Positions 536 to 61,685 of a stretch of 64,000 nt of DNA are shown here, piece after piece. The stretch is taken from the IMG/VR virus record IMGVR_UViG_3300012667_000244, positions 34,326 through 98,325 of that record. One strand, 5' to 3'. Position 1 is the first letter of the stretch. Every line of letters starts with the position of its first letter. The notes below the pieces were generated by a model. The model ran no database searches. It was given only the letters and a program-made list of their open reading frames with translations, and was not told the DNA's origin. Source of the stretch: a virus. Its lineage: Duplodnaviria; Caudoviricetes. Position numbers and translations under genes: made by a program.

Positions 536-10761
<10,226 letters not shown>

Positions 10762-24961: not shown

Positions 24962-25582
24962 TTATGGGCGTTTTGAGATAACTTTATCAGCTAAACCGTA
25001 GGCTACAGCCTCGTCCGCACTGAGGAAAGTATCAAATTTCATGGTGTTAAACAGCTCGTCGTACTGTTTGCCCGCAGTATTGTGACGCACATACAGTTCT
25101 GTTAGGCGTTTGTTAATACGCACTGATTCTTCAAAACTACGCTTTGCGTCTTCAAACTGCAAATCTTGTACATGAACGCTACCCCGTGTGCCCGGAGTAC
25201 CAGAGCTAACACGATGAATCATTGTGCGACTTTCAGGAAGCACGAATCGCTTACCGGCGCATCCTGCTTGTGCGAGGAAACTACCCATACTGCAAGCCTG
25301 TCCAAGGACATAAGTGGCGACATCGGGTTTAATGAATTGCATGGTATCGTAAATAGCAAGGCCAGCAGTAACGGACCCACCAGGGCTATTAATAAAGAAA
25401 GTAATGTCTTCATTACCTTGACTCTCCAAGAAGAGCAACTGTGCAACAATCACACTAGAAGTATGCTCGTTAACATCCGAATCTAGCATTACAATTCGGT
25501 CCTTGAGCAAACGACTGTAAATGTCGTAGGCCCGTTCACCTTTTGGTTCTGATTCAATAACCGTTGGGATTAGTCTTGTCAT
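24962..25582 (-). CDS. clpP: ATP-dependent Clp protease proteolytic subunit
   Basis: ERAYDIYSRLLKDRI, INSPGGSV, ACSMGS (Ser), MIH (His), DTFLSADEA..YGLAD. Confidence 0.95.
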   Translation of the reverse strand: MTRLIPTVIESEPKGERAYDIYSRLLKDRIVMLDSDVNEHTSSVIVAQLLFLESQGNEDITFFINSPGGSVTAGLAIYDTMQFIKPDVATYVLGQACSMGSFLAQAGCAGKRFVLPESRTMIHRVSSGTPGTRGSVHVQDLQFEDAKRSFEESVRINKRLTELYVRHNTAGKQYDELFNTMKFDTFLSADEAVAYGLADKVISKRP

Positions 25583-30634: not shown

Positions 30635-30663
30635 ATTTTACACGAAAATGCAGTCAGTGTCAA
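30635..30663 (-). promoter_or_regulatory. Sigma70-type promoter
   Basis: TTGACA-N17-TAAAAT. Confidence 0.75.
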
Positions 30664-31312
30664 TCTTCTGTAGGCGCACATAGACCTTTTTGGCTAACAG
30701 TTTTATTACCGGAGTAGAAGTGTTTCCAAACTGTCCAATGTAAGCACTAAGATTTGGGCTGACAAATGTGTCTTGGAATTTTAACTTGCTGAGTGCAGTG
30801 AACTTACTCATATACCTAAGTGCTCGGTATTTGCCTAGACTGCGGCAAAGCTCAATAGCAATGCTTAGTGAGTAAGCATCTACTTCGTCCGGGTCCATTA
30901 AGTACTCTTGATAGTGATAAGCGCCGTTAGGATGGTCCCAAAAGTTCTCATGCCCTCTCTTACGGCTTTGACGCTGATGCTTGTATTCATGTACAGTTGC
31001 ATCAAACACTTGGACTAGAAAACTTGTAACATGTTTCTTATCCCACACCATGGCCTTGTCAAAGTTGTGATGTACTACAACTTCAATAGGAGTTTCATAT
31101 GTGTCATCATCTTCAGCATCGTAGTATGCGTTGATGTAAAACTCCTCGTCTAAGAGTTTTTTATTGCGTTCACTTTTTACCCGAACATCAAGTTCGTGAC
31201 GCTTAAATTCTCTGCGCAACATAACTAACAAATTATGAAAACTTGTTCCGTGCTTGCAGTTAGTTCTAACTTTGTTGCAAACATCACGCACAGTTTCCAT
31301 AATTGAGTTCAT
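30638..31312 (-). CDS. HExxH zincin-like protein (paralogue of 24183)
   Basis: VHEYKHQRQ...YLMDPDEVDAYS. Confidence 0.65.
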   Translation of the reverse strand: MNSIMETVRDVCNKVRTNCKHGTSFHNLLVMLRREFKRHELDVRVKSERNKKLLDEEFYINAYYDAEDDDTYETPIEVVVHHNFDKAMVWDKKHVTSFLVQVFDATVHEYKHQRQSRKRGHENFWDHPNGAYHYQEYLMDPDEVDAYSLSIAIELCRSLGKYRALRYMSKFTALSKLKFQDTFVSPNLSAYIGQFGNTSTPVIKLLAKKVYVRLQKIDTDCIFV

Positions 31313-31492: not shown

Positions 31493-31891
31493 TTAAACGA
31501 AGTCATCGTTGTACGGCACTGGCATCCAACCTAAATCGTGTAGGTCTTTTGCAATCTCTTCGGTTACTTCTCCCTCGCTTGCATAGCCGGTTTTTTCAAA
31601 GTAATCGTCATCTTCTTTGCCATCAACACTAAGTCCACCACGCATGCCGCTACAGTAGTAGTCCATGTAGTCCTCGCCCTTGCCGCGAAGATCTGCTACA
31701 ATACCACCTGCGCCGCGCCAGCTTGCTGACCAGTATCGTTCGGATAGTACAGGCCAAAGTTCACGCTTGCACCATTGCATGTTACACCAAGCGGCATATA
31801 AGTTTTGCGCATAGCGTCGATCCTCGGCTTGAATTTTAGCCATTATCCACGAGCAGTCGCGGATCTCTTCTTGTAGGTCGTACTCTTTCAT
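31493..31891 (-). CDS. Hypothetical protein
   Basis: YAQNLYAA.CN...SWRGAGGIVADLR...YMDYYCSG. Confidence 0.7.
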   Translation of the reverse strand: MKEYDLQEEIRDCSWIMAKIQAEDRRYAQNLYAAWCNMQWCKRELWPVLSERYWSASWRGAGGIVADLRGKGEDYMDYYCSGMRGGLSVDGKEDDDYFEKTGYASEGEVTEEIAKDLHDLGWMPVPYNDDFV

Positions 31892-32214
31892 TTATGGAAT
31901 CCGCCTTGGAAGCAGTGGCGTGTTTCATGTCCTAGTTGATGCATACTAGTCCATTTGTTTGTGATGATAATACAACTATTACCAGTCAACCCTTTATCCC
32001 AGAAAGAACATGCTTCGACTTTACTACCGAAGCCACCGTAACCGCGCTTCTTGCTTTCTGCTTGACAACGGGCATTAGCGTTAGGAACAACTTCCCAGCT
32101 AATGGTTGTTTTAGTAGTCATCAAAGTGCTTGCATCAAACGGTGCAGTAGGGTCGTCAGTAAATGCCATTGCGTTTGTTACAACCAATGCCAGTAGTACT
32201 AAAACCTTCTTCAT
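31888..32214 (-). CDS. Secreted small HExxH protein
   Basis: Signal peptide; LGHETRHCF. Confidence 0.65.
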   Translation of the reverse strand: MKKVLVLLALVVTNAMAFTDDPTAPFDASTLMTTKTTISWEVVPNANARCQAESKKRGYGGFGSKVEACSFWDKGLTGNSCIIITNKWTSMHQLGHETRHCFQGGFHK

Positions 32215-32242: not shown

Positions 32243-32359
32243 TGGTGTAGATGGTAGGGTTCGAACCTACAAAGTCGCTCTAAGAGCAAGACCCGTCCCT
32301 CCGTTGCCGATTAGGGTACCAGCATTGGAGGAGGTATACCATGTTCCACTCACATCCAC
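32243..32359 (-). tRNA. Non-canonical tRNA-like RNA (117 nt), anticodon not assignable
   Basis: Acceptor GUGGAUG/CAUCUAC plus A-CCA; T arm GUAGG-UUCGAAC-CCUAC; Leu-like D loop GGAACAUGGUAUAC; long variable arm; 34-nt anticodon arm. Confidence 0.8.
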
Positions 32360-32365
32360 ACTTGT

Positions 32366-32394
32366 ATTATATAGCAGTTTGGGTAGAATGTCAA
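32366..32394 (-). promoter_or_regulatory. Sigma70-type promoter for the tRNA-like RNA
   Basis: TTGACA-N17-TATAAT; predicted +1 at about 32359-32360. Confidence 0.85.
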
Positions 32395-34020: not shown

Positions 34021-35104
34021 TTTTAAAGACCTAAAGCAGATTCATTTAGAAGTGACAAACAACTGCCAAGCATCATGTCCTATGTGTGCTCGTAATCAGC
34101 ACGGTGGCCCGGTTAATCCGTTGCTAAGTTTAAACGACTGGACACTGGATGAGTTTAAGCAAATTATCACACAAGAAGTTTTGGATCAAGTTGAACGCAT
34201 TTACTTCTGCGGCAACTTTGGTGATCCTATTCTTAATCAAGATTTAGTAGCAATGTGCCAACACATTAAAGACAATGCACCTGATGTCATTGTTGGCATT
34301 CATACAAACGGTGGCGCACGAAATACCAAGTGGTGGGAATCACTAGCTCAGGCATTGCCTAAAAATCATTTAGTTATGTTTGGCATTGACGGTTTAGAAG
34401 ACACACATCATCTACATCGCATTGGCACAACATATGACAATGTAATCCGTAACGCACAGGCTTTTATCGGTGCTGGCGGAACAGCAGAGTGGACATTTAT
34501 CAAGTTTAAGCATAACGAGCATCAAGCAGAAGAATGCCGTAAGCGTAGCGTTGAGATGGGCTTTGCTAGATTTACTTTAAAGAATAGTTCACGCTTTGTT
34601 GGAGAACCGTTTTGCGAAGTACAAGACAAAGAAGGCAATCATACACATACGATTGAGCCGCCTACAGATACACCTTTGCACTTTATTAGCAAAGCGATTA
34701 TTAATTCCTATAAAGAGTTAGTTGCAGAAGCAGTTATTAGTTGCCATGCACAGCACGAAAAGGAAATCTATATTGATGCACACAAGAAACTATTGCCATG
34801 CTGTTGGGTAAGTTCTATTCCAACAACTTATTACGACAATAAGTTTGTTGACCCAAGCATTGATTACGCAATTAAATCACAGTATGCTAACCTTGTTGCT
34901 GACTTAGGACAACTAAACGCAACAACAGGCATACGCAACATTATCGACTCAGAGCCTTGGCAAACAGTCTGGCACAAGTATTGGAATGAAGAGAAGATGA
35001 TTACTTGTGCAAGAGTTTGCGGTAAGTTTACGAGTGCGGAAATTTCACAACCGAGCGACCAGTTCCTCGAAGTACAGGATAACAGAGATGATAACGCCTA
35101 TTAA
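34013..35104 (+). CDS. Radical SAM/SPASM-like protein (group C)
   Basis: CQASCPMC, CGNFGDP, HTNG, FGIDG, IYID...LPCCW, CARVC. Confidence 0.9.
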   Translation: MFNFKDLKQIHLEVTNNCQASCPMCARNQHGGPVNPLLSLNDWTLDEFKQIITQEVLDQVERIYFCGNFGDPILNQDLVAMCQHIKDNAPDVIVGIHTNGGARNTKWWESLAQALPKNHLVMFGIDGLEDTHHLHRIGTTYDNVIRNAQAFIGAGGTAEWTFIKFKHNEHQAEECRKRSVEMGFARFTLKNSSRFVGEPFCEVQDKEGNHTHTIEPPTDTPLHFISKAIINSYKELVAEAVISCHAQHEKEIYIDAHKKLLPCCWVSSIPTTYYDNKFVDPSIDYAIKSQYANLVADLGQLNATTGIRNIIDSEPWQTVWHKYWNEEKMITCARVCGKFTSAEISQPSDQFLEVQDNRDDNAY

Positions 35105-43617: not shown

Positions 43618-44644
43618 AACAAGCACTATCTGCAATGCGGCATGTCCGCAATGTTTTAGAGAAGATAGATTTGGTGACTATAGCTGGTTTGAACAGACAT
43701 ACTTGCCTACTGAGTTTTACGATCGAATCCCTGACGAAATATATCAGCAAGCAGACTTAGACTTTTGCGGAACACTAGGCGACCCATGTGCCGCACCTAA
43801 TTTCTTAGAAGTAATTGAGAAGATTAAAACTAAAAACTCTAGTAAGACTATCGGTATTGCTACTAATGGGGGCATGAAGACTCCAGAGTGGTGGGCTAAG
43901 TTGGGAGCATTGTTAGGACCTAATGACCATGTTATATTTGGAATCGATGGGTTAGAAGACTTGAATCATGTCTACAGAGTTAATGTACGATGGAACAAGT
44001 TAATGGAGAACATTAAGGCCTTCATCGCCGCAGGCGGAAGAGCTAATTGGCAGTTTATTCCATTCTTACATAATCAACATCAGATCGAAGCATGTAAACA
44101 ACTGTCTAAAGAGATGGGCTTTATTAGCTTTTTTACTGTAGAAAATACACGCTACATTTTAGATGCGGCAAACGGCAATGTTAGATATGGTGCTAATAAA
44201 ACATTACTACAGCAACCGTCGCTGCCTAAGTATCAAAGCGAAACAGTAATTAATTTTAGTCCTAGCATTAACGATTATAAGTCGTTTAGAGATGCTACTG
44301 AGTCAGGATCAATATGTTGCGAAAGCTTAGACAAAAAAGAAATGTACATTGATGTTAAAGGACGACTATTACCATGTTGTTACCTGTCAGGTGCAACACA
44401 TACATTAGATCCCACTGATGAATGGGATGGCTTTTATAAGTTCTGGACTGAACACGGCGGTGACAAGGTTAGTTTATTCTATCATACTTGGAACGAAGTG
44501 CTTGAAGCAGATTACTACACTGCCTTAAAAGAAACATGGACGAAGAAATATGGTCAAGGACGATTATTAGTGTGCTCTGCTACTTGTGCAAAATCTGAAG
44601 GTCAGTTGTTAAAGTACAACACCTTTAAGGAAGAGCATGAATAA
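43595..44644 (+). CDS. Radical SAM/SPASM-like protein (group C)
   Basis: CNAACPQC, CGTLGDP, FGIDG, MYID..G.LLPCC, CSATC. Confidence 0.9.
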   Translation: MITRIQIETSTICNAACPQCFREDRFGDYSWFEQTYLPTEFYDRIPDEIYQQADLDFCGTLGDPCAAPNFLEVIEKIKTKNSSKTIGIATNGGMKTPEWWAKLGALLGPNDHVIFGIDGLEDLNHVYRVNVRWNKLMENIKAFIAAGGRANWQFIPFLHNQHQIEACKQLSKEMGFISFFTVENTRYILDAANGNVRYGANKTLLQQPSLPKYQSETVINFSPSINDYKSFRDATESGSICCESLDKKEMYIDVKGRLLPCCYLSGATHTLDPTDEWDGFYKFWTEHGGDKVSLFYHTWNEVLEADYYTALKETWTKKYGQGRLLVCSATCAKSEGQLLKYNTFKEEHE

Positions 44645-45290
44645 CATAGACCTAGCTCGCAAGATCTTAAGGAACACAGACATTCCTTGGTTGCAATTAG
44701 ATATTCCGTTTAATGTAGACTTGTGGAAGCAACAGGCATTAGAAGCAGAGTCATTCTATACTGAGTATAGAGATAGTGAAAGCCAAGGATGGTCAAGCTG
44801 TTGTTTGCATGGCTTAGGTGTAGATAAAACTTATACTGCTGATAATTATGGGCACAACGAGTACACCGCACCATACACCTTTACGGACCTAGCATATCGT
44901 ACACCTGCTATTACAGACTTTTGGAAATATCAATTTCCTGCAGAGCGTTATACTCGCATACGATTTATGAAAGTAGCCGCTGGCGGCAGCATTGCATGGC
45001 ATAATGATGGCACTATACCAGAAAACATTGATCCGTTGTTAAGCATATTACCAATTAACTTAGCTATTAGGCATCCTTCTAATTGTACAATGGAATTGGA
45101 AGGGCACGGAGCAGTGCCTTGGGATGAAGGCAAGATGTTCCTAATCAATATTAGTAAGAACCATGCAGTGTTCAATCATAGTAGCAAGGATCGTATACAC
45201 ATGATTTCCAATGTTGTACTAGGTAATAGAACCAAAGAGTTTTGTGATATGCTAGTAAGATGCTATACTGAGCAATATGGTAAAATTTGA
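44637..45290 (+). CDS. AspH-type oxygenase
   Basis: RIRFM...GG.I.WHND...HAVFN.S...RIH. Confidence 0.75.
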   Translation: MNNIDLARKILRNTDIPWLQLDIPFNVDLWKQQALEAESFYTEYRDSESQGWSSCCLHGLGVDKTYTADNYGHNEYTAPYTFTDLAYRTPAITDFWKYQFPAERYTRIRFMKVAAGGSIAWHNDGTIPENIDPLLSILPINLAIRHPSNCTMELEGHGAVPWDEGKMFLINISKNHAVFNHSSKDRIHMISNVVLGNRTKEFCDMLVRCYTEQYGKI

Positions 45291-46599
45291 TACACCCGCA
45301 GGATCACCTGACATAGTTTTTATAGTTTTGGATCGCATTAGCCAATGCCAGAACGCATGGTCTGCTGAGTTAATGAAAAACTTATCCGACTTTGTTATTT
45401 CGAATATTAACGAAAAAGGCTTCAATGTTATTCAAGGCATTGACGAAGACCTCTTACTCTGTGAAGCTGCCAAAACATACAATCACGCTGTGGTCATGAG
45501 TACTGGTACAGAGTTTATCAACGGTGACGAGTTCTTTAACGAGTTAGAAAATTTTATCTACAGTGAATACTACTTCTTGATGGGACATATTCCCGATAGA
45601 GATGACGGTTATTATGAGTTGCACGATCAATGCTACTTGATTAACCTCGCAATATACGATCAAATAGGACAACCTAAAGTAGGCGAGCCAGCATACTACT
45701 CAGCACACGAGCAGTTAGAGCCCTTGCGTAGCGAACAAAATGTACACGACGATTATACTCCTACATGGGTTATGAAAGGTCATACTACTAAACAGTACAA
45801 ACACAAGTGGCACGGTTGGAATATTCTAGCAAGAGCGTTTGAAGGGAACCATCCAGTCCTCGTGTTCCCCGAAGAGTTTAGAAACAACAAACTCAACTAC
45901 TATCCTAACTACGAACCTGCGTTCCTAAAGGCTAGCACTTACTTGTACGGTAAGAATCAAGTGGCGGCGCAGACAATGTTCTATCCCCACAACACAGAAG
46001 AAGTAGTTAAGGTTGAGTTTGAAGGCCCTATTAGGCAGTTAGTCACACAAGCAAGCGGACTAAACTGGATAGACTACTTAATTACCTATGGCTACAATGC
46101 AGACACTGTAGTTCGCTTTGTGGATTACAATTTGTTTGCACTAGAGTGTATGAAAGAAATCACAGACAATTGGGATGGTACAAACTATTCTACATTTGTC
46201 CGTGACTACATTAACAAGCGAGCATCGTTCTTAGGTAAGGATGGTTCACAATGGTTAGCTGATGGCGGCAAGTTATTTGATCCAGACATTCCAGAGTGGA
46301 CATTAATCAAGGAAACAGTTAAGTTCGAGTTCCGACATGAAGACCTTGTGCTGAACAAGTCACTAGATGTAAGTACATGGGTTGATCCTGTTCCTAAAAC
46401 AATCGTACACTTGAGTCATATATTCAACTATGATCCAGTAGCACCGTTCTATCCATTGAAGCATAGAATATACAGTGAGCGGTTACTCAAACAAAAACTT
46501 GCAGAGCATGTACCGGATGCAACTATCATTATGCTAGGCAGTGTTGAGCCAATAGCTCGACCAACATGGCATATGAATGGAGATTGGAATGGACTATGA
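45277..46599 (+). CDS. Hypothetical two-domain protein (possible GT-A-like plus Rossmann/MTase-like)
   Basis: 440 aa; weak patterns only (QCYLINL; ASGLNW...FVDYN). Confidence 0.5.
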   Translation: MVKFDTPAGSPDIVFIVLDRISQCQNAWSAELMKNLSDFVISNINEKGFNVIQGIDEDLLLCEAAKTYNHAVVMSTGTEFINGDEFFNELENFIYSEYYFLMGHIPDRDDGYYELHDQCYLINLAIYDQIGQPKVGEPAYYSAHEQLEPLRSEQNVHDDYTPTWVMKGHTTKQYKHKWHGWNILARAFEGNHPVLVFPEEFRNNKLNYYPNYEPAFLKASTYLYGKNQVAAQTMFYPHNTEEVVKVEFEGPIRQLVTQASGLNWIDYLITYGYNADTVVRFVDYNLFALECMKEITDNWDGTNYSTFVRDYINKRASFLGKDGSQWLADGGKLFDPDIPEWTLIKETVKFEFRHEDLVLNKSLDVSTWVDPVPKTIVHLSHIFNYDPVAPFYPLKHRIYSERLLKQKLAEHVPDATIIMLGSVEPIARPTWHMNGDWNGL

Positions 46600-47122
46600 T
46601 GTAAACAAGTTTGTTTTTGCAGATAAGATTAATAAACTAATACCTGCTCTTAGAGCAGAGTTTCTATCTACACACGGACTTGATACTACAGATATACCGT
46701 TGTACAGCCAGTATATAGGAGATAGCCTAGATCCTCATGGTAAATGGAAAATGTTAGTTGTTAAGATCATGGGCGAGTGGGAGGAAGGTAATATATCTAA
46801 GTATCCTGTTCTTGCTGAACTAGTTAATAGTTTTGGAGATGTGTGTAGAGGTGCGGGATACAGTATTCTCGACGCAGGCGGATATGTTCCGATGCATACA
46901 GACACTGAGGAAGGGCACGAAAATTATGTAATATGTCATGTACCCTTGGTTGTACCAGAGGGAGATATAGGTTTCTTAGAAGGCACTTATAAAGGTACAT
47001 GGGTAGAAGGACAATGCTTTTTACTAAATGTAGACATACCACATTCTATTTGGAACAACACTACTCAACCTAGAGTAGTTGTCCTATTAGAGTTACTTAA
47101 AGAAGCAGCATATGATATTTAA
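46577..47122 (+). CDS. Aspartyl/asparaginyl beta-hydroxylase-like oxygenase
   Basis: YSIL..GG.VPMHTD...CHVPLVVP...HSIWN...PRVV. Start may be 46589. Confidence 0.8.
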   Translation: MEIGMDYDVNKFVFADKINKLIPALRAEFLSTHGLDTTDIPLYSQYIGDSLDPHGKWKMLVVKIMGEWEEGNISKYPVLAELVNSFGDVCRGAGYSILDAGGYVPMHTDTEEGHENYVICHVPLVVPEGDIGFLEGTYKGTWVEGQCFLLNVDIPHSIWNNTTQPRVVVLLELLKEAAYDI

Positions 47123-50972: not shown

Positions 50973-52580
50973 ATGAAGATTGTTATTATTGGCGGCGGGT
51001 CATCAGGCTGGATGACAGCGAGTTGGCTAAACAAGTTTGTTCCTAATAGTGAGATAACATTAGTTGAGAGTCCTGCTGTAGCCCGAATTGGGGTCGGTGA
51101 ATCAGTAACAGTCCACCTGACAGAATTTATTAGGGTACTAGGCATCAACGAACAGCACTTTATGTTCGAAACTGGCAGCATATACAAGTACGGAAATAAT
51201 TTTATTAATTGGTTGCACGGCGAAGGCGAAAACGAACTGTTTACCTTTGCGTTTAATAAAGGCAAAAAACACCTGTTCTCATCTCCGTATAACGGTGTAT
51301 CATGGACTGACCACATGGATGTATCTGTAGACGAGTTGCGACTTACTGACTATTGGTTAGAGTTGTTTAAGCAAGGACGCACTGACCGAAACTTTAGCAA
51401 AAACTTTACAGGGTGGACAGAATTCACTGAAGACCTTAAAGCACCATTTATTGATGGAGAGTCGTATCTACCAAAGAACGACCTTACATGGGCATATCAC
51501 ATTAACACTGAAAGGTTTGCAGATTACTTAATGAAGCATATAGCATTGCCTGGCGGTGTAAAACATAAACTAGCACATGTTAAGGGGGTAGAAAAATCAG
51601 GCCAGCATATTTCCAAAGTTATTCTAGACACCGGTGAAGATATTGTTGCAGACTTATATATTGATTGTTCAGGTTTCCATCGTGCGTTAATCAGAGAATT
51701 TGACGACATCAAATGGAAGTGGTATGATAACTGCCCGGCTAACACTTCATTTGTGTGCCAAGTTGATTACGAAGACCCGGTAAGAGAAATGGTCAACTAT
51801 ACTAAGTCTATCGCAATGGATAAAGGGTGGGTGTTTGATGTTGACTTATACCACCGCCGTGGTACCGGTTATATTTTTAACAATGACTTTGTCAGTGACG
51901 ATGATGTACTAAAAGAATTCCACGAAAAGATTTTAACTAAGCCTAAGTTTGAACCTAAGAAAATTTCTTGGGATAAGAAGCGTATGATTTCGCCGGGATT
52001 TGGTAATGTAGTAGCTGTGGGAATGACTATTGGATTTATTGAACCTATGGAAGCAAACATGCTAGGTGTTATATCTAACTCCGCCTGGGAGATTGCACAT
52101 ACTATTGAAGCTAATCGAGCCAATCTTCATAACATTGATTGGAGCGATTACAACACAAAGATGAGCTATACCTTCGATGATATTGCAGATTTTATATTAG
52201 TACACTACACTCTAACTTCTAGAACTGATAACGAATTCTGGTTACAAATGCGTGATATAGGCCAACAACTAAATCATGAACAGTTATTGCTAGACAAGTA
52301 CAACGATCATAAAAATACAATCAGCGGCGCAGCCCAGTCAAAGTGTTTCTTCCCTGACTATATGTGGATAGAGTTGGCAGCAACTTGGAACTTAGATCTA
52401 AGCAAGTGGCCCTCAAAGAATATCCCTGAAGACGAACTTAGATTAGCAGAGTTACACTTTAAGTACATTCAAGATCATTTAAAAATGTCGTCAAGCAAGT
52501 TTCCGCAATATCACGAGTATCTTAAAAATACAATCTTTAAAGGCATGAGTCCACAAGAGTGGATGGCTTTAAAATTTTAA
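50973..52580 (+). CDS. Tryptophan-halogenase-family flavin-dependent enzyme
   Basis: GGGSSGW, IGVGES, K..N.F.NW, AYHIN, YIDCSGF, FIEPME, DFILVHY. Confidence 0.85.
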   Translation: MKIVIIGGGSSGWMTASWLNKFVPNSEITLVESPAVARIGVGESVTVHLTEFIRVLGINEQHFMFETGSIYKYGNNFINWLHGEGENELFTFAFNKGKKHLFSSPYNGVSWTDHMDVSVDELRLTDYWLELFKQGRTDRNFSKNFTGWTEFTEDLKAPFIDGESYLPKNDLTWAYHINTERFADYLMKHIALPGGVKHKLAHVKGVEKSGQHISKVILDTGEDIVADLYIDCSGFHRALIREFDDIKWKWYDNCPANTSFVCQVDYEDPVREMVNYTKSIAMDKGWVFDVDLYHRRGTGYIFNNDFVSDDDVLKEFHEKILTKPKFEPKKISWDKKRMISPGFGNVVAVGMTIGFIEPMEANMLGVISNSAWEIAHTIEANRANLHNIDWSDYNTKMSYTFDDIADFILVHYTLTSRTDNEFWLQMRDIGQQLNHEQLLLDKYNDHKNTISGAAQSKCFFPDYMWIELAATWNLDLSKWPSKNIPEDELRLAELHFKYIQDHLKMSSSKFPQYHEYLKNTIFKGMSPQEWMALKF

Positions 52581-55170: not shown

Positions 55171-56243
55171 CCATATCATTATGTGAACACTGCTACAGAC
55201 ATGTACCAGCAGAAAAGTTTGAGCGTGACGGAAGCATCTGGATGAAGAAGACTTGTCCTGTTCACGGCGAATCAGAATACATGATAGAGCGTGATGCAGA
55301 GTTCTACAACACATTGGAGTTTGACCCTTACGGCTATGATGTTCCAAGCGGCATTATGGTAGAAGTCACAGACCGTTGCAACTTGAAGTGTCCGCATTGC
55401 TATCACGAACCCGAGTCAGCAACCACAGACAAACCTATTGACCTAATCTTAGCGCAAATTGAATCGTGGCCTGATGATGCTGGTAGTGTTATCCTTGCAG
55501 GTGCAGAACCTACTGTAAGAAAAGACCTACCGGAACTTATTCGAAGTGTGGCAGATTTACAACAGAAATTGGGCAGAAGTCACCAGGATATTACCATCCT
55601 TACAAACGGCGTAAAGCTAAGTGATAGGGCTTGGGTGCAAGAGATTAAACAAAGCGGCTGTAGGGCTGTTATGATAGGTTTAAACCACCATAGCTACCAG
55701 GGTGAAACTGTGCATCGCAAGCAACTTGAAGGCATCCAAAATTGTAAGGAAGAAGGCATACTTTTGTACTACATTGGATATACACTAGAAAGTATTACAC
55801 ACATTCCGGATGTTTTGGAAGAAATTCAACTGCTAGGCGATAGTGCTACACAATATCGTATCCGTGCTGGCAGTGACATTGGACGCAACCCTGACGAGCC
55901 ACGCTACTACCTAAGCGACCACATTAAGGAAATCAAAGCCTACTGTGATAGTCGAGGCTGGACATGGGAAAAGATTCCTGCTGATGACAACCTGTATCAC
56001 TACATGGTCAAGATCAACGGAATTGTACATAGACTGATCCAGTGGAGTGATCCTAAGACTATTGACATGGAAGAACTGCGTTGTGGCCCATGGTGTGACT
56101 TTGTGCCAGGCAAGCCTATTACTAACTTCTTACATCAGATCATGTTGCGTGATCAAGCAGTTAATAAAAATATGATGTTGTGGGATACTGTCCCAGAACG
56201 CTATCAGTTCCGTAGCAGGGAAGCGATGCGCTTAGATCCTTAA
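55161..56243 (+). CDS. Radical SAM protein of the MJ0619/tetraether-synthase-like architecture
   Basis: N-term SLCEHC...VPA...K.CPVHG metal site; EVTDRCNLKCPHC; GAEPT; TNG. Confidence 0.8.
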   Translation: MELTISLCEHCYRHVPAEKFERDGSIWMKKTCPVHGESEYMIERDAEFYNTLEFDPYGYDVPSGIMVEVTDRCNLKCPHCYHEPESATTDKPIDLILAQIESWPDDAGSVILAGAEPTVRKDLPELIRSVADLQQKLGRSHQDITILTNGVKLSDRAWVQEIKQSGCRAVMIGLNHHSYQGETVHRKQLEGIQNCKEEGILLYYIGYTLESITHIPDVLEEIQLLGDSATQYRIRAGSDIGRNPDEPRYYLSDHIKEIKAYCDSRGWTWEKIPADDNLYHYMVKINGIVHRLIQWSDPKTIDMEELRCGPWCDFVPGKPITNFLHQIMLRDQAVNKNMMLWDTVPERYQFRSREAMRLDP

Positions 56244-56587
56244 CGCTCTAAATAATTTACAACTGTATCTTTAGGATTGAAGAACTCGTTAACTGTATAG
56301 AGTACAACAGTTCTGTTGAAAGGTTTACAACTAAACAAGTCAATGTAGCCTGCTCGAGTAGAGTTTACAAAGTGTGCAGTTATATTACTAGTTGTAATCA
56401 TCTGCAATACACTGTAGCCCTCATTGTCAGTTCCTGGCAATAGGAATTCAATTTGCGGTTCACCATGTGCAACCATATCAACTCTATCGATCAATACTCT
56501 GACAAACTCAGCAATACGCTCTTTGTCAGTAATGTAATCTAGATTACACTCTGTGCAATCAACCATCATATGATATCCCCAAGCCAT
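56240..56587 (-). CDS. speD: S-adenosylmethionine decarboxylase proenzyme-like
   Basis: GYH...DC, GYS...ITTSNITAH, YIDLFSCKPF. Confidence 0.8.
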   Translation of the reverse strand: MAWGYHMMVDCTECNLDYITDKERIAEFVRVLIDRVDMVAHGEPQIEFLLPGTDNEGYSVLQMITTSNITAHFVNSTRAGYIDLFSCKPFNRTVVLYTVNEFFNPKDTVVNYLER

Positions 56588-58915: not shown

Positions 58916-60455
58916 TGTTGTCCTGTTTACTGACACAGTACAGTTTGATGTTAAGTCTAGAGGCTACGGCGCACACAGACTAGCAAGTCATTTGCGAGCT
59001 AACGGCTACACTTGCCTAGTAGTAGACTTTAGCAGTGTAGTCACATACGATATCTATACTGCAATCTTAGACAAGGCAATTGGCGCTAACACATTAGCCG
59101 TGGGCTACTCAACAACTTGGATGCCGTTTAAACTAGACGGTGAAGCTCGTACACGCAACCCGGGTGAAGGCGATGACAACGATGCAGAACGCTTGCACAA
59201 CAGTAGTCTAGTCAGTAGCTTTGCACAAGGCGACTACAGTTGGATTGACTTTGTTAAGCAGAAGAATCCCAAGACACGAACTATCCTAGGTGGCGCTAAG
59301 ATTGACTTTTATCTTGATGCACCTGTGGATCATATAGTTGTGGGCATAGGCGAAACTGAAACACTAGACCTAATTGACAGCATTGCTAAGAAGAATAGAC
59401 GCATCTTTAGTCGTATTGTTGACCACGATCGTAAAGCACACAATAGCTCTTGGGACTTTAGAGATAGCACAACAAGTTATACAGAGTACGATCTAATTCA
59501 GCCCAACGAAACTCTTAACCTAGAAGTCAGCCGTGGCTGTATGTTTAAGTGTGCTTACTGTAGCTATCCGCTGATTGGACAAAAGACCAAAGACTACCTA
59601 AAGCATCCCGAAGTCCTACGCAAAGAGTTGATCGACAACTACGAGCGCTGGGGTACAACCAAGTACTTTATTGTAGACGATACATTCAATGACAGCACAG
59701 AAAAGATGCAGATGTTTACCGACATTAGTCAGAGCTTGCCTTTTGAATTAAAGTTCTGGTGCTACTTGCGAGCAGACTTGTTGGCAGCGCACCCGGAACA
59801 GATACAGCTACTTAAAGATGCTGGCATACAAGAAACTTATTTTGGCATAGAAACATTTAATCCCAAAACTGCTAAGTTTATCGGCAAGGGAATGGCTAGC
59901 GATAAGATCGTAGATACAATGTACAAGTGTAAGGAAGTATGGGGAGAGCGTAGCTACATTGCCGCGGGTATTATCATAGGATTACCTTACGAAACACAAT
60001 CTACTATACAAACTGCTGTAGACTTCTTTCGCAGAGACGACTGCCCTATTGACCTTGCCAACACATTCCCCCTGAGTATTATCGGCAACCATGACCTAGT
60101 CAAATACATGTACATGAGCGAAATTGATCGCAACTATGGCAAGTACGGCTACTACTTCCCTAATCCAGAAGACAACTACTATAAGTGGCGCAAGGATGAT
60201 GATACAGATATCAACAGTTATGAGCAAGCAGAAGAACTAGCACAGTTGATTAATCCCACACTACCGCACATGCCATATCGCGGCTGTTTCTATACAAGTA
60301 GTTTTAGTGACGCTAGAATAAGCGACCGAGAAAAAAATTTAGACTTAACAGACGATGAATATCAAAGTCTAGTTAAGTCTATCAATTTCACAGAACTCTT
60401 TTACGAGACTGTTAAACGGGATTACTTGAATCCCTTAATTGCTAAATTAGTTTAA
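58908..60455 (+). CDS. Class B-type radical SAM protein (tandem paralogue)
   Basis: SRGCMFKCAYC; shares NYERWGTTKYFIVDDTFNDSTEK with 57302. Confidence 0.88.
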   Translation: MFDVVLFTDTVQFDVKSRGYGAHRLASHLRANGYTCLVVDFSSVVTYDIYTAILDKAIGANTLAVGYSTTWMPFKLDGEARTRNPGEGDDNDAERLHNSSLVSSFAQGDYSWIDFVKQKNPKTRTILGGAKIDFYLDAPVDHIVVGIGETETLDLIDSIAKKNRRIFSRIVDHDRKAHNSSWDFRDSTTSYTEYDLIQPNETLNLEVSRGCMFKCAYCSYPLIGQKTKDYLKHPEVLRKELIDNYERWGTTKYFIVDDTFNDSTEKMQMFTDISQSLPFELKFWCYLRADLLAAHPEQIQLLKDAGIQETYFGIETFNPKTAKFIGKGMASDKIVDTMYKCKEVWGERSYIAAGIIIGLPYETQSTIQTAVDFFRRDDCPIDLANTFPLSIIGNHDLVKYMYMSEIDRNYGKYGYYFPNPEDNYYKWRKDDDTDINSYEQAEELAQLINPTLPHMPYRGCFYTSSFSDARISDREKNLDLTDDEYQSLVKSINFTELFYETVKRDYLNPLIAKLV

Positions 60456-61685
60456 GTTTACCCATGCGCTACCGTTGTAGCCTTTGAATGTAGAACCGTC
60501 TAATACAATCATACCTGCTTCAGCTGGGCTTGGCAATGTGCCAGCGACGTCTGCAACTTTCATAAAGCCAGCAACACGCATACCGCCGTTATCAATACGA
60601 ACACGCTCTGTACCATCTGTCGAAGCACAAATGACACCGTCACCTGGGTGGAAGAATCCTGTATCAACACTAGCGTCTGTTGAGAATCTAATGCTTGGTT
60701 CACTAGCTGTTCCGTCACCAACTGACACTGTTGGAATGTCTAGTACGCCAGTGCTGTTGAAACTTAGGTTCTGTGTGCCACCAAGTGCATCAACTACGAT
60801 TACACCAAACGCACCCGGTGCTGATCCTGTAGTTACAACTGTACCAGGTGTTGGGTCAACGAACAATCCGAACGCACCGACGTTAACATATCCAGTACCG
60901 TCATATGCTTGGCCGTCAAAGAAGCCAACTGCATCGCCTGATTCCATCGCTGTTTTAACTTGTAAAGATCCTTTAGAAATCTTAAATGTAATACCTGCGT
61001 TGTTTGTGCCATCACTAATGCCAGTGAACACACCAAAGTTATTATCACTGTACATCCACAAAGTGTTAGGGTTTGTAGCTGTACCAAATGTAACTACATT
61101 GTCTGAACGGTCATCACCTAATGGCTTTGCTACAGTACTTGTGATAGTTGCATTAGTAATTGTAAGATCAGCTGTACTAATTGTACCTGCACTTGTACTA
61201 ATGTTTCCAGTAGTATTAATTAATCCAATAATATCAATTGTACCAGTGCCGCTGATGTCGTTACTGTTTAAGTCTAAGTCACCGCCTAGCTGTGGAGTAA
61301 GGTCTTCAACAATGTCAGTAATACCTGTAATTGCACCAGTGTCTACTACTGCACTGATATGTCCGCCTGTATAGACAAAGCTAATACCAGTGTGCGTAGC
61401 ACCTACTCTAGTTAAATCGTCACCTACTGCACCAATAGCTCTCTCAGGAGTATAATACAAGTTATTGTTTTCTTCGATCATTGATGTGTCTAATTCAACT
61501 ACACCAACTTGACCATTAACGCTTGCAACCGCACCCGCCATGTTAGCCATAATGTCAACACCGCCTAATGTAAGGCCGTCACCAACATAAAGTTTTTGTG
61601 TATTAGTAGTGTATACTAGTTCGCCAAGGGCAAAAATTACACCTTGTCTTTCTGTATCTGTTCCGCGTCTAATTTGTAGCGCCAT
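60447..61685 (-). CDS. Tail-fibre-like virion protein (Mtd/hyaluronidase-type N-terminal motif)
   Basis: LQIRRGT...GELVYTT.T.KLYVGDG; PQLGGDLDLN; C-term FKGYNGSAWVNL; TAAATA at 61737; GGAG RBS. Confidence 0.75.
   Translation of the reverse strand: MALQIRRGTDTERQGVIFALGELVYTTNTQKLYVGDGLTLGGVDIMANMAGAVASVNGQVGVVELDTSMIEENNNLYYTPERAIGAVGDDLTRVGATHTGISFVYTGGHISAVVDTGAITGITDIVEDLTPQLGGDLDLNSNDISGTGTIDIIGLINTTGNISTSAGTISTADLTITNATITSTVAKPLGDDRSDNVVTFGTATNPNTLWMYSDNNFGVFTGISDGTNNAGITFKISKGSLQVKTAMESGDAVGFFDGQAYDGTGYVNVGAFGLFVDPTPGTVVTTGSAPGAFGVIVVDALGGTQNLSFNSTGVLDIPTVSVGDGTASEPSIRFSTDASVDTGFFHPGDGVICASTDGTERVRIDNGGMRVAGFMKVADVAGTLPSPAEAGMIVLDGSTFKGYNGSAWVNLN

Follow-up and report, generated by a model that had tools for sequence, protein, structure and literature searches.

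A 64,000-nt stretch of a tailed-phage genome (the window; positions 34,326 to 98,325 of IMG/VR record IMGVR_UViG_3300012667_000244) carries a gene for a 117-nt RNA which, as far as comparison of its natural variants can tell, is a real, selected and non-decoding derivative of tRNA-Leu. It belongs to a large and uncatalogued group of phage tRNA look-alikes that is absent from Rfam. We consider it probable that the gene encodes a mimic of tRNA-Leu that acts in trans and takes no part in decoding. The RNA and its parts are listed below; RNA position p corresponds to window coordinate 32360 - p, on the minus strand.

32243..32359, minus strand: whole gene, a 117-nt anticodon-less tRNA-Leu-like RNA (family of 195 loci, 124 distinct RNAs)
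32353..32359, minus strand: 5' strand of the acceptor stem, GUGGAUG (positions 1-7), whose partner is 32247-32253
32332..32350, minus strand: D arm (positions 10-28), AGU / GGAACAUGGUAUA / CCU, with a Leu-type loop containing G18G19 and A20a
32298..32331, minus strand: hairpin in place of the anticodon arm (positions 29-62), with pair-preserving changes in the relative L002 and hypervariable in the family
32272..32294, minus strand: long variable arm (positions 66-88), a two-tier helix with a UUA triloop and strong covariation in helices 3 and 4
32254..32270, minus strand: T arm (positions 90-106), GUAGG-UUCGAAC-CCUAC, with an invariant CUUU (U48) just before it
32243..32253, minus strand: 3' strand of the acceptor stem, CAUCUAC, followed by the discriminator A73 and an encoded CCA

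A selected family of tRNA-like RNAs

In the window copy, the acceptor stem GUGGAUG/CAUCUAC has 7 bp including G3:U70, and U8 and G9 lie between it and the D region. The hairpin at the anticodon position is 34 nt long and consists of a CCUCC/GGAGG stem, an AA/AC internal loop, a 7-bp helix (UGCUGGU/AUCGGCA) and a 6-nt loop (ACCCUA), while the variable arm has 23 nt, 9 bp and its UUA triloop. RNAfold recovers all these helices, with a fold energy that is not significant alone (z-score only -1.49). The ARAGORN and Infernal-type searches proposed in the original prediction gave little: ARAGORN at default settings detects no tRNA, whether given the window or the complete 98-kb virus record, and the Rfam tRNA model (RF00005) scores the RNA at 22.2 bits, below its gathering score of 29. 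No Rfam family reaches its gathering score, and sub-threshold hits to ToxI and permuted tmRNA (12.7 bits) were judged to be chance. Since both detection and folding energy are weak for this single sequence, the case against chance is a comparative one.

An exact-pattern scan of IMG/VR yielded one close relative, L002, which differs from the window RNA at 7 positions. Five of these are in stems, and pairing is kept at all five: A replaces G3 opposite U70, A replaces G66 opposite U88, and the distal helix accounts for the other three. The radical SAM protein encoded next to the RNA has about 600 relatives among viral contigs, and a covariance model found the RNA at 61 of 80 loci carrying such relatives; in every case the RNA and that gene are divergently oriented. 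With more pattern scans and an nhmmer profile the set grew to its present size, with RNAs of 93-119 nt in uncultured large phages.

An alignment of 62 homologues has 95% of its cells paired, against 42-46% in slid controls; both partners have changed in 22 of its 34 pairs, and the observed score was not attained in any of 500 shuffles. Acceptor, T-stem and identity positions were counted without an alignment. The acceptor pairs form in 99-103 of 103 RNAs, with full swaps at pair 2 (UA/CG), pair 3 (GC/AU), pair 5 (AU/UA/CG) and pair 6 (CG/UA). The T stem is paired in 100% of cases, including a UA/CG swap, and closes a UUCRANN loop. Among the 124 distinct RNAs, A73 is found in 123, U8 in 123, CCA in 119, the CUUU ahead of the T stem (which includes U48) in all, and the D-region pattern U8-N9-AGY-...GG-N-A-N-A-(C/G)CU in 122. 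The variable arm occurs in 73 sequence versions that share one two-tier helix and covary strongly. The D stem is not canonical and proved to be a weak Leu-type stem of three positions: A10:U and G11:C are followed by U12.C in most members and by C12:G in 22, there is an extra G, and residue 26 is absent. An alternative D-stem pair, G9:C29, was tried and rejected, as position 9 is free (G in 108 RNAs, A in 7, C in 7 and U in 2) and position 29 covaries with position 62 in L053.

The family is under purifying selection, as the substitution pattern shows, and what it keeps is a tRNA body able to form the L shape, made up of the acceptor stem with A73-CCA, the Leu-type D loop and the T loop, U8, U48 and the class-II variable arm. 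The 117-nt tRNA-like RNA proposed earlier is thus confirmed, and the covariation among phage homologues that was suggested as its test is present, down to the three distal-helix changes in L002. The compensatory changes together with the invariant tertiary positions rule out a decaying pseudo-tRNA.

The former anticodon arm is interchangeable and does not decode

The arm at the anticodon position behaves quite differently from the frame that carries it. It exists in 84 versions of 13-38 nt, and of 399 pairs of RNAs with at most two differences in their acceptor, D and T parts, 384 carry different arms. Its tips include UUCG (sometimes placed straight on CCUCC/GGAGG, as in the relative with CCUCC-CUUCGG-GGAGG), GNRA tetraloops (GGGA, GUGA, GCAA), UUUG, triloops, YCAUA pentaloops and C-rich hexaloops. 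A conserved 7-nt anticodon loop occurs in no member of the family; the window copy, with its 6-nt loop and 34-nt arm, does not have the 5-bp anticodon stem and 7-nt loop with U33, anticodon and R37 of a tRNA. ARAGORN reports anticodons on short-armed members only, and these are contradictory (Arg, Pro, Ser, Gln, His and four-base) on near-identical frames. Given the missing loop and the contradictory anticodons, the family RNAs are incapable of decoding, and no excision can restore an anticodon loop. This agrees with the earlier proposal that the RNA cannot decode. The doubled anticodon arm described in the same proposal is real in the window, but it is specific to this lineage, being one among the 84 interchangeable arms. 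In one subgroup (L017, L004, L005, L043, L193 and L199) the arm has a UAGUA/GAAC internal loop resembling loop E (sarcin-ricin-like), which could be a protein-binding site; the tips of this subgroup are swapped among UUCG, GCAA and C-rich loops. We also looked for an antisense target of the window arm: nothing longer than a 10-nt complement turned up in the 98-kb record, which is within the 9-12 nt obtained with shuffled arms.

Two earlier suggestions lose their ground here. One was a 17-nt intron whose removal would leave an Ala-like loop; the arms of relatives (CCUCC-CUUCGG-GGAGG, GNRA-capped helices) yield no anticodon loop, and neither in the window nor in the relatives is there an insert, of group I or bulge-helix-bulge type, that could be excised to leave a 7-nt loop. 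With introns allowed, ARAGORN finds nothing at its default threshold, and relaxed thresholds give only forced, mutually inconsistent models. The other was a decoy for anticodon nucleases, for which the RNA presents no anticodon loop to cut.

Descent from tRNA-Leu and predicted charging

The original prediction read G3:U70 as the identity element for alanyl-tRNA synthetase (AlaRS). G3:U70 alone is able to confer some AlaRS charging, and the window copy, which has both G3:U70 and A73, might be mis-alanylated through it. However, among the 124 distinct RNAs pair 3:70 is G:C in 74, A:U in 43 and G:U in only 5, a distribution in which the window pair is best read as a neutral intermediate between A:U and G:C, an accident of its lineage and not an AlaRS signal. 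Taken as a whole, the explanation that the RNA is charged by AlaRS, is a tRNA-Ala with a 17-nt intron or is a pseudo-tRNA in decay seems to us very improbable, for the reasons given here and in the two preceding sections.

The similarities point instead to tRNA-Leu. When compared with 46 phage tRNAs, the D region is nearest to the tRNA-Leu isoacceptors of the same phages, and this is true for both D-arm subtypes. Likewise, the best canonical match of the family models R1 and R2 in T4 and T5 is tRNA-Leu (28.2, 34.0 and 30.0 bits). The combination of A73, Leu-like D loop and long variable arm, which had been noted as suiting leucyl-tRNA synthetase (LeuRS), is conserved across the family. The determinants of E. 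coli LeuRS are A73, A15-U48, G18G19, A20a and contacts of the D and T loops, while the anticodon and the variable arm are dispensable, so that a tRNA-Leu without both arms is still charged (PMC9976931). At sequence level the family has this whole set: A73, A14/A15 with U48, G18G19, A20a and the D/T-loop elbow. Because all determinants of the E. coli type are kept and the anticodon arm is dispensable to LeuRS, leucylation of the RNA is plausible; the identity rules used are those of E. coli, and those of the host may differ. The D stem is irregular: its extra base, the lack of residue 26 and, in most members, the U.C mismatch may compromise both the tRNA core and its recognition by LeuRS. Since LeuRS has no need of the variable arm, the conservation of that arm hints at a further reader.

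Transcription and gene neighbourhood

The promoter and the first gene beyond the RNA are the following.

32389..32394, minus strand: -35 hexamer TTGACA; the family as a whole keeps a -35-like box, with a spacer of 16-18 nt
32366..32371, minus strand: -10 hexamer TATAAT (12/12 sigma-70 match, 17-nt spacer), with predicted +1 at G1 (32359)
31888..32214, minus strand: first downstream ORF, 108 aa, with a signal-peptide-like N-terminus, starting 29 nt past the CCA

The window G1 is the 7th base past the -10 hexamer. Of 127 distinct upstream regions, 121 place exactly 6 nt between the -10 hexamer and G1, with a 17-nt spacer in 110. The proposal that the RNA's own promoter starts transcription at the mature 5' G is thereby borne out for the family. 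Given this fixed spacing, the RNA is predicted always to be the first thing transcribed, without a leader. A leaderless start is unusual for bacterial tRNAs.

No terminator is present between the CCA and the downstream ORF in the window, and the 108-aa ORF is probably co-transcribed with the RNA; in 66 loci a homologue follows the RNA on the same strand. Family-wide, 117 distinct cases have an ORF as the next element, at 90 nt or less, and 6 have a tRNA, at 60 nt or less. These tRNA followers are tRNA-Ser(GCU) or tRNA-Thr, in arrays of 13-32 tRNAs. The downstream ORFs vary by clade, from the secreted 108-aa protein found here to a 65-aa basic protein followed by ThyX elsewhere.

On the upstream side, a radical SAM gene is found in 153 of 197 loci. 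In some relatives this first island gene and the promoter are kept and the RNA is absent; at L007 and L008 the same promoter drives the ORF directly. Distant members of the family lie inside tRNA arrays with a promoter of their own, and there the radical SAM gene is absent. Because of these RNA-less relatives and array members, we regard adjacency to the enzyme island as local gene order and not as a conserved partnership. The functional tie to the island implied by the original prediction is further weakened by the direction of transcription, which leads away from it.

Several neighbouring genes deserve mention in their own right. The island beside the RNA encodes at least 10 radical SAM proteins and, at window 44637-47122, 50973-52580 and 56240-56587, two proteins of the Asp/Asn beta-hydroxylase family, a flavoprotein of the tryptophan-halogenase family and an AdoMet decarboxylase; this enzyme set looks like one for peptide or amino-acid tailoring. 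A 224-aa protein with the motif HEYKH...DPDEVDAY (window 30638-31312, minus strand), a putative small metallopeptidase with no Pfam match, has its gene about 1.3 kb downstream from the RNA in 63 loci. In 3 loci the array-borne RNA is preceded, at 27 nt, by the gene for another protein, with HELRH...PAEINAR (L230:2026-2766, plus strand). The two HExxH families can be aligned over the motif only (hhalign probability 17%).

Relation to known tRNA-like RNAs

With class II tRNA-Leu (RF00005) the family shares the 7-bp acceptor stem, A73, CCA, T arm, long variable arm, U8, U48 and the GGAA..GG-N-A-N-A D loop. It differs in carrying an exchangeable hairpin of 13-38 nt where tRNA-Leu has its anticodon stem-loop, in its irregular D stem without residue 26, in having +1 at G1, and in an Rfam score below the gathering score.

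Closer in kind are the tRNA-like RNAs of long-known phages: as with T5 RNA1/RNA2 and T4 rnaC, we are dealing with a phage gene for an anticodon-less, tRNA-shaped RNA among tRNA genes. T5 RNA1 and RNA2 are annotated in GenBank AY543070 as misc_RNA, 'tRNA-like stable RNA with unknown functions', and are likewise phage-encoded among tRNA genes. T5 RNA1 lacks an anticodon arm but combines a Leu-type D arm (CCG-GAAUUGGUAGA-CGG) with a T arm and an acceptor-like stem. It differs from the family in an insert of ~75 nt in place of the anticodon and variable arms and in having no encoded A73-CCA at its annotated end. The T5 RNAs also come from a phage with an enterobacterial host, and model R2 gives only a partial match of 15.6 bits to them, with no detectable homology. 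The T4 RNAs rnaC and rnaD (species 1 and 2) are small stable RNAs of the T4 tRNA cluster whose roles are still unknown (PMC3014915, PMC9697503). A canonical T arm, which the family also has, ends rnaC, whereas rnaC and rnaD have neither a 7-bp acceptor stem with A73-CCA nor a Leu-type D loop; it is the T arm alone that gives R1 and R2 their scores against the T4 RNAs (14.7 and 18.8 bits). Compared with the T5 and T4 RNAs, the family keeps the variable arm and A73-CCA and has the insert cut down to a bare hairpin. It joins this old class of phage tRNA-like stable RNAs (T5 RNA1/RNA2, T4 rnaC) as a new form, with no detectable homology to them.

To our knowledge, the anticodon-less look-alikes of T4 and T5 have been known for about fifty years with their function unexplained. 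In the present family, a tRNA look-alike pared to its bare frame, more than 100 natural variants reveal which parts are selected (acceptor end, A73, Leu-type elbow, variable arm) and which part, the former anticodon arm, is free. The old question is thus turned into testable ones: leucylation, a binder, protection from defence, and leucyl transfer. A widespread class of phage RNA genes is overlooked by standard tRNA finders and by Rfam.

More distant analogues share the principle of a tRNA shape that does not decode. The tRNA-like domain of tmRNA is a tRNA-shaped acceptor/T-arm module without an anticodon or codon reading. In contrast, tmRNA has a universal G3:U70, alanine charging, a tag reading frame and pseudoknots, none of which belongs to the family; for the window RNA there is no tag frame, no pseudoknots and no tmRNA call by Rfam or ARAGORN. 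The aminoacylatable tRNA-like structures of plant RNA viruses, the vtRNAs of MHV68 and mascRNA are also mimics that engage tRNA enzymes (aminoacyl-tRNA synthetases, CCA-adding enzyme, RNase P/Z) without decoding. Those mimics are 3'-terminal genome elements or by-products of pol III and RNase P in eukaryotes, whereas the family is a free-standing gene of bacterial type derived from tRNA-Leu.

What the RNA may do

In the explanation that we favour, host RNA polymerase would make the RNA early in infection with a 5'-triphosphate, so that RNase P would not be needed, and host tRNA 3'-processing would cut off the downstream mRNA or tRNAs and so expose the CCA end. The RNA would then probably be leucylated, as its retained LeuRS determinants suggest. 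Having no anticodon, it would act off the decoding site, as a stand-in for tRNA-Leu towards some tRNA-binding factor of host or phage. A point against this reading is that no phage-encoded partner in the form of a Leu/Phe-transferase, ATE/Bpt, FemAB or class Ia aminoacyl-tRNA synthetase was found in five related genomes. Ranking the possible roles by their support, we place the tRNA-Leu stand-in acting in trans first, followed by a decoy presenting the class-II body, then a donor of leucine, and finally a 5' module acting in cis.

A decoy or sponge would address a host tRNA-directed defence, or a tRNA-binding factor, that reads the class-II body and not the anticodon. Its strong early promoter would provide the RNA at once to soak up the effector and leave translation undisturbed. 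Such a role is possible, though we hold it to be unlikely. It would account for the structural conservation of a variable arm that LeuRS does not need, for a consensus early-type promoter without a leader that allows quick synthesis, and for the fast evolution of the anticodon-position and variable-arm sequences, which resembles an arms race. There is also a precedent, since Septu and retron-Eco7 PtuAB cleave tRNA-Tyr in its variable arm, and phage tRNAs serve as decoy or supplement (PMC13096335). On the other hand, the invariant A73-CCA and the Leu-type determinants are not obviously needed by a decoy for a nuclease, and nothing ties the hosts of these phages to such a defence. We know of no defence system aimed at tRNA-Leu bodies.

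The leucyl end itself could be what matters. An off-ribosome carrier, charged by LeuRS, might donate leucine to host Aat or Bpt and so create N-degrons for phage ClpS-ClpA-ClpP, a scheme to which we give little credence. Slimmer still are the chances of the specific form in which a ribosome-excluded carrier feeds N-terminal leucine marking for the phage's ClpS-ClpA-ClpP; if this were true, the phage would run its own N-degron pathway with a private tRNA. The relatives do encode ClpA-like, ClpP and ClpS proteins; in G000, G005 and G007 the ClpP gene follows the RNA at a distance of 7-10 kb on its strand, and the phage ClpS retains the motif NDDxTPMEFV known from E. coli ClpS. Aat is present in cyanobacteria and proteobacteria, as seen in the control row of the partner search, and L/F-transferase reads the aminoacyl end and not the anticodon. 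Against the scheme, a search of the five related genomes, of which one is 94% complete, yielded no protein of the Aat, Bpt or FemAB families, the Clp genes are not neighbours of the RNA, and ordinary Leu-tRNA would do equally well. An action purely in cis, in which the tRNA fold stabilises the downstream mRNA or tRNA array or directs its processing and the freed RNA is a by-product, we find just as improbable as the leucyl carrier. Compatible with it are the invariable place of the RNA at the start of a longer transcript, whose +1 is G1, the closely following ORF (117 distinct cases) or tRNA (6) with no terminator, and the same promoter's direct drive of the ORF at L007 and L008. Yet any hairpin would suffice as a stabiliser, which needs no invariant A73-CCA, U8, U48, G18G19, A20a or Leu-type D loop, and the RNA stays constant as the genes behind it change by clade (secreted protein, small basic protein, tRNA-Ser, tRNA-Thr).

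Carriers of the family

The contigs that carry the RNA reach 345 kb. Each related record has one copy, beside 21-32 ordinary tRNA genes that include three for tRNA-Leu, and the carriers encode a family-B DNA polymerase and a clamp-loader-like ATPase. Searches by blastn and tblastn of 50,697 GenBank phage records gave no match for the region, the radical SAM protein or two family RNAs. A scan of 185,579 bacterial and archaeal species genomes with the D-arm pattern gave 36 matches. We rejected 34 as chance, since ~87 would be expected, none lies in a tRNA and none fits the family profile over its length. The remaining two loci represent one real match, on a phage-like 14-kb contig. This sole real bacterial-genome match, L230, is contig CAUYTX010000437.1 of 'Gammaproteobacteria bacterium CCP3-SC1AL1'; it encodes 21 tRNAs, 2OG oxygenases and a methyltransferase and resembles phage DNA that ended up in a bacterial assembly.

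In the 345-kb relative G005, genes for heme oxygenase, ferredoxin-dependent bilin reductase, Hsp20, a DnaK-type Hsp70 and MazG adjoin that for ClpS (L281:572-6425). Heme oxygenase, bilin reductase, Hsp20, DnaK and MazG are typical auxiliary genes of cyanophages, and their presence in this one relative suggests a cyanobacterial host; the carriers are therefore probably cyanophages. The Clp set of this phage group is a full one and comprises ClpP (202 bits; window 24962-25582, minus strand), a 756-aa ClpA-type unfoldase with Clp_N, two AAA modules and ClpB_D2-small (G000:C1:16345-18612, equivalent to L279:16342-18612, outside the window), and a ClpS adaptor with NDDVTPMEFV in the relatives G005 and G007 (L281:3673-3975, minus strand). 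A phage-borne reader of N-degrons is unusual.

Some of these phages have tRNA-Ile(UAU) genes of 92 nt with a long extra arm (L202:4709-4800, minus strand; L230:6324-6415, plus strand, and 7656-7747, minus strand), a class-II-like shape that is not expected of tRNA-Ile. Finally, the window encodes a 412-aa protein with an N-terminal Mtd_N (major tropism determinant) domain (60447-61685, minus strand); proteins of the Mtd type are targets of diversity-generating retroelements.
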